From positions 1 through 42,916 of the forward strand of contig JANLHF010000003.1 in NCBI GenBank assembly GCA_024653825.1: 42,916 nucleotides of DNA. Direction: 5' to 3'. The DNA is from Patescibacteria group bacterium. Its GTDB lineage: Bacteria > Patescibacteriota > Minisyncoccia > Phycocordibacterales > Phycocordibacteraceae. Position 1 is the first letter of the stretch; every line of letters begins with the position of its first letter. Positions 327 to 6,043 of the stretch are shown in pieces. The translations under genes were made by a program, and so were the position numbers. The notes beneath the pieces are model-generated. The model had not been told where the DNA came from. It was given only the letters and a program-made list of their open reading frames with translations, and searched no databases.

Positions 327-1658
327 ATGGAATATACGGGCAAAAAAATTTATTTCATCGGCATCGGAGGGATCGGGATGTCGGCGCTCGCGCAATATGT
401 CAAGGATAGGGGGGCAGACGTGACTGGCTCGGATAGGGAAGCGAGCCCCGTCACTGACCTTCTGGAGAAGAAGGGAATTAAGGTCGAGATTGGTCAGAGA
501 GCAGGAAATGTTTCCGAGGATGCTGAAATGGCAATTTATAGCGATTCGGTACCTGTGGATAACGTTGAGCGCATTCGCGCCACTGAGTTGGGGATAACCC
601 AAATCTCATATTTTGCAATGCTTGGGAAGGTGTCAGCGGATAAGCGCACTATCGCCATCGCGGGGACACACGGGAAGACGACGACGACGGGGATGCTCGC
701 GAAGATTCTTCATGATGCTGGGGCAGACGAGACGGCGATTATCGGCTCGATCGTTAAGGACTTTGGGTCTAATTATCTCAGCGGAGATTCAGATTTGTTT
801 GTTGTTGAAGCCTGCGAATATAAAGACCACCTCCTCGAACTCTCGCCACAAGTGCTCGTCATCACGAATCTCGAGTGGGATCATACCGATTACTTCCCTT
901 CTCTGACTTCTCTTCAGGACACCTTTAAGAAAGCGATTAAACGAGTACCGGAAGACGGCGCGATTATCACCGACCCGAATAACAGAAACATCACTTCCCT
1001 TCTGGCCAGCGCAAAAGCTCGGATTATTGATTACACTAAAGAGCCGGCATATGGGCTCGCCTTGCCGGGCGAGTTTAATCAGATGAATGCACGCGCGGCC
1101 GCCGCGGCCGCGCGTACTGCGTACTCCTCAATAACTGACGAGACCATTCGCACCTCACTTGCCTCGTTTCAGGGTACGTGGCGGAGATTTGAATATAAAG
1201 GGGAAACAGCGAAGGGCGCCGAGGTCTACGACGACTATGCGCATCACCCGACGGCTGTGCGCGAGACGCTGAAGGCGCTTCGCGGGAAAATCCGCGAGGC
1301 CCGCAAAGTGACTCCTCGCGAAGGCGAGGTGTCTCTTTGTGGGCCAGGTAAGATCATTGTTGCATTCCATCCGCATCTTTATAGCCGTACGCGTGACCTG
1401 CTCGACGAATTCGCCGTTGCTTTTGGCGATGCCGACAAAGTATTTATTGCTCCTATTTATGCCGCACGCGAAGTCGATGACGGTACGATCTCGAGCGAGA
1501 TCCTCGCGGAGCGCATCCGCGCAACCGGTACTGAATCGGTCGCACTTGATTTTGACACTATTGAAAAAGAACTCGAAAATGTTGAGTCGGGCGATACCAT
1601 CATCACGATGGGCGCGGGCGATATCTACAAAATTGCCGACGCACTAGTTAAAAAATAA
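327..1658 (+). CDS. murC: UDP-N-acetylmuramate--L-alanine ligase
   Basis: GIGGIGMSALA, AGTHGKTTTTGM, VVEACEY, NLEWDHTDY, DDYAHHPT, FHPHLYSRT, TMGAGDI motifs. Confidence 0.95.
   Translation: MEYTGKKIYFIGIGGIGMSALAQYVKDRGADVTGSDREASPVTDLLEKKGIKVEIGQRAGNVSEDAEMAIYSDSVPVDNVERIRATELGITQISYFAMLGKVSADKRTIAIAGTHGKTTTTGMLAKILHDAGADETAIIGSIVKDFGSNYLSGDSDLFVVEACEYKDHLLELSPQVLVITNLEWDHTDYFPSLTSLQDTFKKAIKRVPEDGAIITDPNNRNITSLLASAKARIIDYTKEPAYGLALPGEFNQMNARAAAAAARTAYSSITDETIRTSLASFQGTWRRFEYKGETAKGAEVYDDYAHHPTAVRETLKALRGKIREARKVTPREGEVSLCGPGKIIVAFHPHLYSRTRDLLDEFAVAFGDADKVFIAPIYAAREVDDGTISSEILAERIRATGTESVALDFDTIEKELENVESGDTIITMGAGDIYKIADALVKK
1298..1345. repeat. 48-bp intragenic palindrome in murC (frame-preserving)
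   Basis: GGCCCGCAAAG(1298-1308)/CTTTGTGGGCC(1335-1345), GAC/GTC and CCTCGC-GAAG-GCGAGG; 20 of 22 positions pair. Confidence 0.8.
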
Positions 1659-2950: not shown

Positions 2951-4741
2951 ATGGAAAATCCCGAGCGCGTGACCTACTTCGCGGCGACTGACGCACGCGG
3001 GAAACTTATTCCTTTCGGTATTAAATCGAAGGATCGCGATCGTCACATGTATGTCATCGGTAAGACCGGTATGGGTAAGTCGACCCTCCTCGAGAATATG
3101 GCGATCCAAGATATCAGAAATGGGGAAGGCATCGCCTTTCTCGACCCGCACGGCGCGACGGTTGATCGGCTCCTCGACTATATTCCCGAAGAGCGCGTCA
3201 AAGACGTCGTCTACTTCGCGCCGTTCGACCTCGAACACCCCATCGCCTTCAACGTGATGGAGGATGTCGGCTACGACAAGCGCCATTTGGTGGTCAGCGG
3301 GCTCATGGCGACCTTCAAGAAGATCTGGGAGGACGCGTGGAGCGCGCGTATGGAATACATCCTCACCAATACGCTCCTCGCGCTTCTTGAATATCCGGAT
3401 GCGACCCTGCTCGGCGTGAATCGTATGTACACCGATAAGGATTATCGGACGAAGGTGGTGGATAACGTGAAGGATCCGGTCGTGAAGGATTTCTGGACCA
3501 AGGAGTTCGCAAACTACGGCGATCGTTACACCCAGGAGGCAACGCCGGCCATTCAAAATAAGATCGGCCAATTCACCGGCAATCCGCTCATCCGTAATAT
3601 CATTGGACAGCCGAAATCCTCGTTCGACATCCGTACGATGATGGACCAGAAGAAGATTCTCATCATGAATCTCTCGAAAGGACTTGTGGGGGAGACCAAT
3701 ATGCGTCTCTTGGGCTCGATGCTCACGACGCGTCTCTTCCTCGGCGCGATGAGCCGCGCGAATCTCTCCGGGCCCGAACTCACGAAACTTCCGCACTTTT
3801 ATTTTTATGTAGATGAATTTCAGAACTTTGCGAACCAGACATTCGCCGAGATTCTCTCCGAATCGCGCAAATATAAACTGAACCTCATCATCACGAACCA
3901 ATACATCGAGCAGATGGAGGAGGAAGTGCGCGACGCGGTGTTCGGTAACGTGGGTACGACGGTGGCATTCCGCGTTGGACCCTTTGATGCCGAAGTGTTG
4001 GAGACAGTCTTTATGCCGAAGTTTTTGAAAGAGGACATCGTGGGTCTCGATAAACGGCAGGTGTATCTCACCCTGATGATAGACGGGGTTGGCTCTTCTC
4101 CTTTTTCTGCAGTTACCATCCCGCCGATAGAAGCACCACCAGTATCTCATCGACAAGAGGTCATCGACTCGTCGCGAGAACAATTCTCTACACAGCGCGC
4201 CGGCATCGAGACAGCCATCATGGAGGAGTTCGCGGTAAGTGCGGCGGCTCCCGTTCCGCTCGATGCGCGCATGAAAAAGAAACCACCGATGCGCTCAGCT
4301 TCTTCGTATACACCGACCTCAACTCATACCACTCCATCTCATCCTCCGACCCAACTTCGCCAAGGCTACGATGGGCACAGCAAGGCTACGGAGGGCACGG
4401 TGCGCTCACCAGAAATTCGTCCTGCTCCGCCGAGTAAGAGCGCTGAAGATCTAAAAGCGATACTGCGGAATATGACGGCAAAGACCGGCGCAGAAAGGGA
4501 ACAGAAACAATCGCATACTCAGCAGGAGTTGAAAGGTACGCTCGCTGATGTGTTGCAGCTCCGACGTCAGGAGTCGGGGCTCCGACCGGAAGCGTCGGAG
4601 AAGCCCGTGACGATTCAACCGCCACAACAAAAAGCCCCGACGTCAGAAGTCGGGGTCCCGACCGGAAGCGTCGGGAAAGAGAAAAAGCCTTTTGAAGTTC
4701 CTGAAGAAGAGCTTCGAGACGTCCTCAAAGGCAAACAATAA
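2951..4741 (+). CDS. VirD4/TraG/TrwB-like (HerA/FtsK superfamily) ATPase with low-complexity C-terminal tail
   Basis: Walker A GKTGMGKS, DPHG, Walker B FYVDEFQNF, SESRKYKLNLIITNQY; TGgTATACT 7 nt upstream. Confidence 0.85.
   Translation: MENPERVTYFAATDARGKLIPFGIKSKDRDRHMYVIGKTGMGKSTLLENMAIQDIRNGEGIAFLDPHGATVDRLLDYIPEERVKDVVYFAPFDLEHPIAFNVMEDVGYDKRHLVVSGLMATFKKIWEDAWSARMEYILTNTLLALLEYPDATLLGVNRMYTDKDYRTKVVDNVKDPVVKDFWTKEFANYGDRYTQEATPAIQNKIGQFTGNPLIRNIIGQPKSSFDIRTMMDQKKILIMNLSKGLVGETNMRLLGSMLTTRLFLGAMSRANLSGPELTKLPHFYFYVDEFQNFANQTFAEILSESRKYKLNLIITNQYIEQMEEEVRDAVFGNVGTTVAFRVGPFDAEVLETVFMPKFLKEDIVGLDKRQVYLTLMIDGVGSSPFSAVTIPPIEAPPVSHRQEVIDSSREQFSTQRAGIETAIMEEFAVSAAAPVPLDARMKKKPPMRSASSYTPTSTHTTPSHPPTQLRQGYDGHSKATEGTVRSPEIRPAPPSKSAEDLKAILRNMTAKTGAEREQKQSHTQQELKGTLADVLQLRRQESGLRPEASEKPVTIQPPQQKAPTSEVGVPTGSVGKEKKPFEVPEEELRDVLKGKQ
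4343..4398. repeat. Nested palindromic element with CAAGGCTACG(AT/GA)GGGCAC direct repeats inside the ATPase gene
   Basis: 18-bp imperfect repeats at 4361-4378 and 4381-4398; CCCA..TGGG inner stem; CCTCC(4343-47)/GGAGG(4390-94) outer stem. Confidence 0.65.
4559..4676. repeat. Two copies of a 42-bp double-hairpin element (4559-4600, 4635-4676) inside the ATPase gene
   Basis: Core 38-mers 4561-4598 and 4637-4674 match at 35/38; each unit is two abutting 21-nt hairpins CCGAC-N7-GTCGG. Confidence 0.85.
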
Positions 4742-4750
4742 TACTTTTCT

Positions 4751-6043
4751 ATGCGCATCGCCGTGTTGCTTACGCTGGTTGTTCTTTTCCCAACATTCGT
4801 GTATGCAGATAGTCCTCCGACTGTCGAGACCGTGATTTTACACGACACCATATATCCGTCTGCAACCGTCGAGTCCGGACTTGCAGCGACCACTTCCATC
4901 GACATTGTTTTTTCTGAGCAAGTAAAAGCATCAATAAAAATACTGTCTGCAGATGGTACGATAATCAGTTCACTTTATTCAAGCTCAAAAGTCACAAATC
5001 CGACACCGAAGATTTGGGATGGGACGGACGATACGGGAGCGTCGGTCGGTAATGGTGTCTACATTGTTCTCATTTCTGCTGTCTCTGTTTCGACGGGACT
5101 GTCGATGACCGATTCGTCTAAAACAATCACTGTTGCACTCCCGCCGAACGACTCAGATCCCGCAGGCATCTCTTCCGACACAACAGACACACCGCCACCC
5201 TCCTCCGGCGGCGGACCCGTGGAATATTTGCCAGTGCCGACACTCCGCATTGTCACCAGTGGCGATCGAACCATCTCTTCTGGCGCGGAGGTTGCCTTTA
5301 CCGCTGTTGTGTACGACGGAAACGGAAATAAGCGCAGTGACGCCGTCGTGACGTGGTCGTTTGGCGACGGAATGCAGAAGACGGGCGCAAGCGTTTTCCA
5401 TGCGTATTACAATTCGGGCGAGTATGTCGCGACCGTGCGTGCCACGACCTCTGACGGCGGTGGAGTACTTGGCGAAAGGGTCGTCACAGTCAAAGACGCA
5501 CGCATCAAAATCACATCCGTCTCTTCGCGCGGCATTGCGCTTACGAACAGCGACTCCCGCACACTAGACCTCTCGTTGTGGCGCCTTTCGATGGGCGGGC
5601 AGGAATTCAAGATTCCCGCGGATACAAAGATTCTCGCCGACCACACCATCCTTTTCCCTTCACAAATAATCGAGTTGCCGATTGCGAACTCGGCATCTCT
5701 CCTTTATCCGAGTGGAGAAACGGCTGCCGTATATCCGAGCGTTGCGGTCGCGCCAACGACAGTCGTGCAACCTACAGCGAACAAAATGAGTTATGAACAA
5801 GTACAGGCGGTTGAGCCACCTGTAACACATACCGTCGAACCGATTATACGCACGGAAAACATTCAAGCACATGAAGAAGCAGTAAGTGCCCCCACAGCGG
5901 CGATTGAAGTCGCGGCTGTGGGGGCGGCATCACTCGAATCGTCGGCGCCCGGCTCTTCTGTCGCGGAAATGTTCAAATCTCCGTGGGCGTTCGGCCTTCT
6001 CGGAGTCATTGTCGTAGCCAGCGGGGCGTTTATTCTTCTCTAA
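4751..6043 (+). CDS. Secreted, C-terminally anchored surface protein (FlgD-Ig-like + PKD + lamin-tail-like domains)
   Basis: Signal peptide; IWDGTDDTGASVGNGVYIVLI (FlgD_ig-like); TWSFGDG..HAYYNSGEYVATV (PKD); LTNSDSRTLDLSLWRL (LTD-like); S/T/P-rich linkers; C-terminal TM. Confidence 0.75.
   Translation: MRIAVLLTLVVLFPTFVYADSPPTVETVILHDTIYPSATVESGLAATTSIDIVFSEQVKASIKILSADGTIISSLYSSSKVTNPTPKIWDGTDDTGASVGNGVYIVLISAVSVSTGLSMTDSSKTITVALPPNDSDPAGISSDTTDTPPPSSGGGPVEYLPVPTLRIVTSGDRTISSGAEVAFTAVVYDGNGNKRSDAVVTWSFGDGMQKTGASVFHAYYNSGEYVATVRATTSDGGGVLGERVVTVKDARIKITSVSSRGIALTNSDSRTLDLSLWRLSMGGQEFKIPADTKILADHTILFPSQIIELPIANSASLLYPSGETAAVYPSVAVAPTTVVQPTANKMSYEQVQAVEPPVTHTVEPIIRTENIQAHEEAVSAPTAAIEVAAVGAASLESSAPGSSVAEMFKSPWAFGLLGVIVVASGAFILL

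Follow-up and report, generated by a model that had tools for sequence, protein, structure and literature searches.

A hairpin within murC of a Patescibacteria group bacterium belongs to a dispersed palindromic repeat family of Paceibacteria

Why should the gene of an essential enzyme carry a near-perfect hairpin inside its coding sequence? The question is raised by murC in the 42,916-nucleotide stretch of DNA analyzed here (hereafter the window). An earlier note on this DNA had described a hairpin with arms of 22 positions, 20 of them paired, closing a GAAG loop, and had proposed that it adds 16 codons to MurC as an in-frame insertion tolerated by the enzyme. We thus asked what this segment is, where else it occurs and how it could have reached murC. 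Other loci are designated below by L and a number.

The hairpin and the MurC loop that it occupies

Read directly from the letters of the window, positions 1298-1345 consist of GGCCCGCAAAGTGACTCCTCGC, GAAG and GCGAGGTGTCTCTTTGTGGGCC, in that order (Table 1). As RNA, the arms form 19 Watson-Crick pairs and one G.U pair with two U.U mismatches; read as DNA, they show three mismatches. The minimum free energy of the hairpin is -38.4 kcal/mol, versus -15.1 +/- 2.6 for dinucleotide shuffles (z = -8.83), none of the 200 being equally stable, and 50 nt of added context left the fold unaltered. The arms, pairs and loop described in the earlier note are thus confirmed by sequence, by folding and by comparison with shuffles. 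In a custom hairpin scan, the 42.9-kb window had no more than three strong hairpins, at 1091-1115, 1298-1345 and 5888-5925, versus a mean of 0.2 in 20 shuffled windows. By its custom score, hairpins matching 1298-1345 in strength numbered two in the window and zero in the 20 shuffled windows. The murC hairpin had escaped an exact-seed repeat search (seed 8), as none of its exact runs is long enough, and it was the custom scan that found it. We rejected a terminator, since there is no T-run and the hairpin lies inside an ORF; a CRISPR array, since spacers are absent and L115 is a plain 42-nt tandem repeat; and an assembly artefact, since the same hairpin family is seen in many independent assemblies.

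Table 1. Features of the murC locus, in positions of the window
Feature	Positions	Strand	Basis or remark
murC (UDP-N-acetylmuramate--L-alanine ligase), host gene, 443 aa	327-1658	+	ORF list; Pfam; PDB matches
Small hairpin TCGCGG-GAAAAT-CCGCGA upstream of the main hairpin	1280-1297	+	
Inserted segment relative to insert-free MurC genes (approximate)	1296-1346	+	51 nt = 17 codons, E324-P340; codon alignment
Complete hairpin, 22-nt arms and GAAG loop	1298-1345	+	sequence, folding, hairpin scan
Hairpin arms	1298-1319 (GGCCCGCAAAGTGACTCCTCGC); 1324-1345 (GCGAGGTGTCTCTTTGTGGGCC)	+	
Left outer stem GGCCCGCAAA	1298-1307	+	its CCCGCAAA part is common to the murC inserts of L084, L049 and L140
Family core GTGACTCCTCG-CGAAGG-CGAGGTGTCTC	1308-1335	+	two conserved T.T mismatches; 'T-type' on the coding strand
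GAAG loop	1320-1323	+	centre CGAAGG gives one extra C-G pair; most members have a 3-nt loop (CCG/CGG)
Right outer stem TTTGTGGGCC	1336-1345	+	distal GGGCC(A) missing from the homologous L084 insert

The host gene was identified as murC from the three Mur ligase domains (Pfam Mur_ligase, Mur_ligase_M and Mur_ligase_C, found in homologues of the window MurC), from the motifs GTHGKTTT, DDYAHHPT and HPHLYSRT, and from PDB MurC structures, which match the product with E = 5e-74. The peptide found between TLKALRGK and KIIVAFHPH is IREARKVTPREGEVSLCGPG. We read the borders of the insert by codon alignment with the empty sites of L171, L173, L003 and L001, but since identity to the nearest relatives is no higher than 76-79%, they are approximate. 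The hairpin is indeed 16 codons long (48 nt) but is one base off the codon grid, A325-P340 being encoded by 1299-1346. Likewise, the insertion is in frame, as proposed, but the net gain amounts to 17 residues or 51 nt (443 versus 426 aa) and not to 16.

Among the 120 MurC homologues nearest to the window protein, which come from Patescibacteria/Paceibacteria/'Kaiserbacteria' and are 70-79% identical, about two thirds have a linker of 3-4 residues at this site (LRAK[VT]KG-KIIVAFHPH; 'KVKG'). The same short linker is present in about 85% of the 77 readable loci among 80 murC loci fetched from GTDB species representatives, and a gap of 13-17 residues opens opposite the insert when solved MurC structures are aligned. 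These three comparisons agree with the short linker that the earlier note had taken as normal for the family. Relatives with an equal-length but non-palindromic loop, which would have told against an insertion, were looked for among the homologues and were not seen. In an AlphaFold2 model of the window MurC (mean pLDDT 90.6), a helix at 308-327, after the DDYAHHPT motif, is followed by coil at about 328-342 and by a strand at 343-348 (IIVAFH); pLDDT is about 62 at residues 331-340. The extra residues thus fall within a coil modelled with low confidence, where a surface loop had been expected. Altogether, the short-form homologues, the structure gaps and the predicted coil support the idea of a tolerated in-frame insertion, but this idea is incomplete, as a dispersed repeat family lies behind it.

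The insert would be transcribed and translated together with murC, as a loop of 17 residues that is probably disordered; VTPREGEVSLCGPGK is an example of the peptide expected if 1296-1346 is read through in MurC. A k-mer search of sequencing runs returned only two soil DNA runs, with 4-6% of the k-mers, and no RNA run. The native murC site itself bears short palindromes (TTCGCGCGAA in L-R-A-K).

A dispersed family of palindromes

The hairpin in murC is one member of a family of palindromic repeats dispersed in Paceibacteria (Patescibacteria/CPR). When metagenome contigs were searched for exact matches to GTGACWCCTCGN{2,8}CGAGGWGTCWC, 95 core copies were obtained in 89 stretches, often several per contig; Ga0172379_10000933 (64.9 kb) carries six or more and Ga0172379_10000441 four, whereas the 43-kb window holds one copy. 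Perfect-palindrome matches from the high-GC contigs L081, L099, L103, L160 and L167 are probably unrelated. Trained on 55 copies, with that of the window left out, a covariance model recovered 1296-1347 with 47.8 bits (E = 4e-15) and found no second copy in the 43-kb window. Across the murC neighbourhoods of 84 genomes (808 kb), its confident matches were confined to the murC site. Single arms are not over-represented, and a scan of IMG/VR viral contigs for the core gave 0 matches. Neither the window nor 13 element-bearing loci matched any Rfam 15 family at gathering score; the one sub-threshold match, to a miRNA hairpin, is spurious (22.7 versus 99 bits).

The family core measures 25-28 nt (GTGACTCCTCG-loop-CGAGGTGTCTC) and the entire hairpin typically 37-41 nt, versus 48 nt in murC. 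The consensus is ...C(A/G)AG-GTGACTCCTCG-CCG-CGAGGTGTCTC-CT(T/C)G..., with a variable loop triplet and with two T.T mismatches (A.A on the other strand) that are conserved in the core. Copies are found in both orientations with equal frequency (36 T-type and 34 A-type), and in several reading frames; in murC the copy is an insertion relative to the homologues and lies in a loop. A 28-mer of the window that includes the CGAAGG centre is identical in the TsaD gene of another organism (L135, 2059-2086, opposite strand). Whereas loop and outer stems vary, the 11-nt arm hardly changes, which is due in part to the search pattern.

Beyond the core, the outer stems extend for about 4-8 bp, and their sequence is copy-specific yet complementary, with up to five pair types at one position. 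Pairing reaches 82.7% of cells, compared with 74.9% after shuffling and 38-55% with slid partners, and covariation is 0.246 versus 0.114 shuffled. This complementarity is strand-symmetric (G.U = A.C), which disfavours selection on an mRNA fold.

Comparison of orthologous copies suggests how such stems could arise. In murC, the inserts found in the window and in L084, L049 and L140 have a common upstream GAAGCCCGCAA(A/G), whereas the downstream GGGCCA, which pairs with the upstream GGCC, is present in the window only. Similarly, in orthologous UvrD genes, a downstream TTTGGGGGCG that is present in L109 and absent in L137 complements the upstream CGCCCCCAAA common to both. Both pairs of sequences suggest that the palindrome has been extended outward by copying its own flank. 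We also considered a scheme in which the flank, in one or two copies, is added to the core to make the insert, and rejected it since the stem-length classes give it no support. At the orthologous sites of the rpsQ-rplN spacer, GAPDH, UvrD and murC, both core orientations are found between similar outer stems, the copies in the rpsQ-rplN spacer having identical outer stems and opposite cores; opposite cores at one site could reflect flipping or re-insertion. No target-site duplication and no conserved flanking motif outside the stem were found among the copies.

A further regularity is that the motif AGGTG(A/T)CTCCT occurs in the same direction in both arms, which gives an 18-nt (6-residue) direct repeat. 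This repeat explains the two conserved mismatches as well as the one-unit short forms, such as L172 CGCGAGGTG-A-CACCTCGCG (+15 nt), and it also accounts for the arrays in L049, L140 and L115 and for the periodicity x-x-(V/E)-(T/S)-P-x. The CGCGAG(G) of the small hairpin at 1280-1297 recurs in one-unit 'short form' murC inserts (L172 and L020).

The loop itself is frequently occupied. About 40 of the 120 MurC homologues carry inserts of 4-35 residues in this same loop, and such inserts are only sporadic in other MurC loops. Their peptides fall into several classes, among them one with REVTPRG, RKVSPRGEVTPYG and ETPRSEESP, a second with GLPAGRQG, a third with GPPSLGSSGRAS and GPPSPEASARRG and a fourth with SAGGRSASGGKG, and every readable insert belonging to these classes is a hairpin at the DNA level. 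The insert of L010, GAGACACCTCG-AAG-CGAGGAGTCAC, is the window core reversed with the same two mismatch positions, and L049 and L140 have arrays of three or four hairpins in the murC loop. In a neighbour-joining tree of MurC, poorly resolved and star-like so that gains and losses are not reliably countable, the insert-bearing sequences are scattered and their sister sequences are insert-free. The murC loop is a hot spot for at least two dispersed hairpin families, probably four. A beta-turn of GAPDH behaves in the same way, and the two sites are struck by several families in a third to half of the relatives.

Host genes, reading frames and spread

Stop-free frames of at least 150 aa contain 70% of the copies, versus 78% of random positions in the same loci; as the two shares are close, the family does not avoid genes. 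We identified 13 host families by Pfam domains that flank the copy on either side, namely RecG, UvrB, UvrC, UvrD, an HhH-GPD glycosylase, GAPDH, TrmD, TsaD, Dus, PyrD, a GT4 glycosyltransferase, MurC and MurD. Five of these 13 belong to genome maintenance and DNA repair. UvrC carries copies at three sites at least, the UvrD copy lies directly before the VTLMTxHxAKG motif, and the GAPDH and TrmD copies fall opposite gaps in solved structures. The spacer between rpsQ and rplN is a recurrent non-coding site. The 'TGCAACATATTATT' context, considered as a ncRNA or a promoter, was rejected as such since it is the start of rplN on the other strand.

Five of the six frames of the element are read, and the sixth, which holds a TGA, is unused. 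In ORFs, the phase counts are 11/14/0 for T-type and 7/17/3 for A-type copies, so that the TGA-containing phase is used by 0 of 25 T-type copies when about 8 would be expected. A single DNA core is in this manner read as RKVTPRREVSPYG, QGDSSQRGVSL, KETPRGEESPY, QGDTSRRGVTL or RRHLAARSHL. Because five frames are used and the TGA phase is avoided, it is the DNA and not the peptide that is conserved, and copies appear to be read through and not removed; from these sequence patterns we infer that copies in genes are translated rather than excised. Orientation relative to the host gene is balanced (25:27), and the count of interior G.U versus A.C on the mRNA strand, a test for selection at the RNA level, is flat (10:10). 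The lack of a G.U bias points to a constraint that acts on DNA, and neither on the peptide nor on the mRNA fold. In-silico deletion of the element to heal broken genes revealed no convincing interrupted gene, but mostly copies just past stop codons, and no near-identical filled and empty pairs were found for GAPDH, where the closest relative is 86% identical.

Regarding the machinery of spread, no transposase gene was found in the 43-kb window. A regex screen of 1.37 Mb revealed two RAYT-like genes that adjoin element-bearing GAPDH genes (L107, 151-849, and L163, 1349-2053). They display HYHLL...Y[VL]HLNP and reach 22.6 bits with Pfam Y1_Tnp, just under the cutoff of 23. In REP-RAYT-REP style, both have another palindrome, TTAAGGATTTCGTAAACCCTTAA / GTGGGGATTTCGTAAATCCCCAC, on their flanks, and the L107 transposase gene itself contains a copy of it in frame.

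We propose that copies would reach new sites by way of single-stranded hairpins. The most likely agent would be either a transposase of the Y1/HUH type (RAYT-like) that works in trans, or template switching by copy choice. Once settled, the palindrome could be perfected, extended outward and flipped by intra-hairpin template switching and slippage, and the same processes could duplicate it in 18-nt units or shorten it. Copies that break the frame or the fold would be lost and those in permissive loops would persist. On the other hand, since the 808 kb of murC neighbourhoods gave confident copies at murC only, old vertical inheritance and loss, and not active mobility, could account for much of the repeated occupation of the same sites.

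Competing explanations and relation to known systems

The explanation that we prefer, with a probability of roughly 0.7, is that of a selfish or neutral palindrome, similar to REP and RPE elements, that sits in frame in a permissive surface loop and plays no role in MurC chemistry. The hairpin in domain 3 of MurC would then be translated as a neutral passenger, and the element would persist for two reasons: five of its six frames are free of stop codons, and selection spares only copies that are in frame and in tolerant loops. A purely neutral model does not, however, explain the strength of the murC hot spot or the excess of DNA-repair hosts, and both invite other readings. One is that the hairpin is a functional mRNA structure selected in murC, for example one that makes translation pause ahead of the folding of the final beta-alpha units in domain 3, or an RNase or stability determinant. 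Any stable hairpin would then suffice, which would let several families be recruited to one loop, in keeping with the great stability of this hairpin, with the unrelated sequence classes of the palindromic inserts found exactly here in a third of the close homologues, and with the much lower occupancy of other murC loops. We nevertheless regard a function of this kind as unlikely, because most homologues and species representatives do without any insert, because the same element is found, in either orientation, in at least 13 further gene families as well as between genes, and because the mRNA strand shows no preference of G.U over A.C; the GAPDH beta-turn, likewise struck by several families, points to loop permissiveness. 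We give an equally low weight to a DNA signal selected genome-wide, either DUS-like or a protein-binding site for recombination, repair or chromosome maintenance, occurring as inverted pairs. The near-invariance of the 11-nt arm amid variable loops and outer stems, the share of genome-maintenance hosts and the identity that the two conserved mismatches confer on each strand would all suit such a signal. However, the density of the family is low and uneven, with one copy in the window and, in the 808 kb from other genomes, confident copies at murC only; single arms show no excess, and the invariance of the arm owes something to the search pattern.

Two further readings are considerably weaker. 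That the palindrome is a purely local product, grown in the murC loop by template switching and unrelated to other loci, appears very improbable: the short palindromes of the native site and the outward extension relative to L084 fit local growth, but they explain the outer stem alone, and the proposal is contradicted by a 28-nt core identical in unrelated genes of other organisms and by the covariance-model score. Still harder to credit is the removal of the segment after transcription or translation, as a mini-intron or in an intein-like manner, leaving MurC protein without it. A clean hairpin could in principle act as a processing site, and nothing direct speaks for it; in-gene copies are always in frame and avoid the TGA phase, two features that removal would make unnecessary, neither a match in Rfam nor a structure of ribozyme size is present, and 17 residues are far too few for an intein. 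Bolder than the selfish or neutral palindrome, and in our opinion doubtful, would be the idea that Paceibacteria proteomes are being systematically remodelled by several self-propagating, translated mini-palindrome families that strike the same protein loops again and again, one family being possibly no junk but a strand-specific DNA signal (for uptake, recombination or repair) kept preferentially in genome-maintenance genes. If true, selfish hairpins would be tied both to DNA repair and to the emergence of new protein loops in ultra-small symbionts.

A full-text literature search found no description of such elements in CPR/Patescibacteria. Translated palindromes have so far been best documented in Rickettsia, and they are now seen in essential CPR enzymes (MurC, GAPDH, TrmD, TsaD and Uvr), although CPR genomes are among the smallest and most streamlined known; the bacteria concerned are ultra-small groundwater Paceibacteria. 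Many 'lineage-specific insertions' in CPR proteins may thus be explained as events at the DNA level and not as functional adaptations, which calls for caution from annotators and structure predictors regarding such loops. The elements could also naturally mark the loops that tolerate insertions in enzymes used as drug targets, such as MurC. With a short core, many independent sites and presence/absence variation, they offer a tractable system for the spread and growth of hairpins under a reduced repair repertoire.

A parallel can be drawn with several known systems, the closest analogue being, as we see it, the Rickettsia palindromic element (RPE) in function and the REP in structure. Ogata and colleagues, whose study PMC3733652 cites, reportedly described RPEs in 2000 as dispersed elements, in frame in housekeeping genes and translated as surface loops. 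RPE-1 measures 100-150 bp. Both cases involve a dispersed palindrome lying in frame in many housekeeping genes of a small-genome, host-dependent bacterium, translated in surface loops without obvious effect on host protein function, and also present as intergenic copies. In frame in functional genes, the Patescibacteria repeat would be read through as RPEs are, as far as translation can be judged from sequence. It differs by its size (core of 25-28 nt, hairpin of 37-48 nt), by its unrelated phylum, by the several families that strike the same loops, and by flipping, outward stem growth and 18-nt arrays. Given size and phylum, homology with RPE-1 to RPE-8 is unlikely.

REP and BIME elements are likewise imperfect palindromes, 20-40 nt long, that occur in many copies and also form dimers and arrays, and the short imperfect palindrome with 95 dispersed copies in 89 stretches conforms to this description. 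Some GTAG- or CGTC-tagged REPs are intragenic and concentrate in replication and repair genes such as uvrA and uvrB (Di Nocera et al. 2013, PMC3733652), and Patescibacteria copies also lie in repair genes (UvrB, UvrC, UvrD and RecG). As with REP/RAYT systems, related contigs carry RAYT-like genes flanked by palindromes; these flanks, however, belong to another family (…GGATTTCGTAAA…) and not to that of the murC hairpin. Moreover, REPs are extragenic by name and predominantly so in location, whereas about 70% of Patescibacteria copies are inside ORFs, and the GTAG/CGTC tag is absent from the consensus ...CAAG-GTGACTCCTCGC-CGC-GAGGTGTCTC-CTTG..., whose flanks have no conserved bases. The elements do not resemble MITEs either: direct duplications and a conserved flank are absent, and one hairpin is too short for terminal inverted repeats plus an internal region.

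Other comparisons concern a part of the picture. Mutagenesis of quasi-palindromes by template switching, said to have been worked out by Ripley and by the Lovett laboratory, accounts for copy-specific complementary stems, for the perfection and extension of arms and for core inversion; being a mutational process, however, it cannot alone place one 25-nt core at many loci. The Neisseria DUS and Haemophilus USS are short conserved motifs in coding DNA, biased to genome-maintenance genes, and uptake signals usually occur about once per kb. They share with the present family a short motif that is tolerated in coding DNA in several frames, frequent inverted pairs and the enrichment in genome-maintenance genes, but they are about 100 times denser and usually single. 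Mitochondrial genes of Nematomorpha contain coding palindromes in which both arms encode conserved parts of the gene itself (PMC6649704). They too are long inverted repeats within translated, functional genes, whereas the murC hairpin is an added, repeated module; within the same murC gene, the palindrome in the Ala run at 1091-1115 is the closer analogue of the Nematomorpha case.

Dispersed hairpins at recurrent protein loops

The murC loop, a short linker, is reached by a 'GLPAGRQG' class of insert which reads CCTGCCTGCCGGTCAGGCAGG at the DNA level. Among the fetched loci (L-numbers), we also observed this class at unrelated positions (L009 6085-6105, L014 6957-6974, L111 6996-7016, L134 12806-12823, and L005 1582 and 6600), so no fewer than two distinct families of dispersed hairpins have landed in this one loop. 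A beta-turn of GAPDH (VEAK-DG-ALVIDGK) carries inserts of 5-16 residues, of several sequence classes, in about half of the closest relatives, as counted over homologues P0121-P0240 and loci L091, L107, L113, L148, L155 and L163. Two more GAPDH loops hold inserts in 15-24 sequences (PPVGEAS/LPTGQAG/GMDSTGSP; TGSPQDA).

Element copies outside murC and RAYT-like genes

In eight genomes, the murC-type element lies immediately upstream of the rplN start codon, within the rpsQ-rplN spacer. Since these copies occur in both orientations with similar outer stems, they suggest that at this ribosomal-protein operon site the core could have been inverted or the element inserted repeatedly. The tandem array of L115 shows that the element is able to amplify locally. 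DNA-repair genes account for five of the 13 host gene families (UvrB, UvrC, UvrD, RecG and HhH-GPD glycosylase; L082-L168), which echoes the host-gene bias reported for intragenic REPs.

Each of the two RAYT-like genes stands between copies, in inverted orientation, of a palindrome that belongs to a separate family (...GGATTTCGTAAA...). Forms related to it are GTAGGACGTCGGACGTCCTAC and double hairpins of 43 nt in L112, L135, L140 and L164. The L107 transposase gene itself contains one in-frame internal copy (668-692).

Features of the window and of the fetched loci
Feature	Location	Details
murC palindrome	window 1091-1115	perfect 11-bp stem, ACGCGCGGCCG-CCG-CGGCCGCGCGT
Palindromic module, two copies	window 4561-4594 and 4637-4669	direct orientation; C-terminal tail of VirD4/TrwB-like ORF (2951-4741)
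PKD-domain surface protein ORF	window 4751-6043	host of next hairpin
38-nt hairpin GCCCCCACAGCGGCGATTGAAGTCGCGGCTGTGGGGGC	window 5888-5925	-34 kcal/mol; within coding region
Island genes	window 6080-42485	~14 GT4/GT2/GT9 glycosyltransferases, two epimerase/dehydratases, B12-radical SAM enzyme, carbamoyltransferase, methyltransferases, Polysacc_synt flippase
rpsQ-rplN spacer copies	L093, L100, L101, L127, L129, L138, L141, L151	
Tandem array	L115 947-1040	42-nt period: hairpin core plus identical spacer TATCCTTATCC
RAYT-like Y1 transposase gene	L107 151-849 (-)	adjoins GAPDH
RAYT-like Y1 transposase gene	L163 1349-2053 (+)	adjoins GAPDH

Other hairpins and genes of the window

Most of the window is filled by a glycan-biosynthesis island, in which neither an Rfam RNA at gathering score nor a transposase was found. 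Upstream of it, the murC palindrome encoding the Ala-rich helix NARAAAAAART is a conserved 'coding palindrome', kept with compensatory synonymous changes in nearly all related murC genes. The site folds below -12 kcal/mol in 55 of 60 such genes, with a mean dG of -22.1 versus -15.6 when synonymous codons were resampled from each gene's own usage.

Compensatory changes are also seen in the syntenic counterparts of the PKD-domain ORF hairpin, located 3' of murC (L001 10041-10078, L002 8011-8048, L003 11224-11263). Finally, the module of the VirD4/TrwB-like ORF, CCCCGACGTCAG(G/A)AGTCGGGG followed by CTCCGACCGGAAGCGTCGGAG, is also found at L010 8637, L138 818 and L169 298; it is thus an additional dispersed hairpin family, predicted to be translated in the window ORF.
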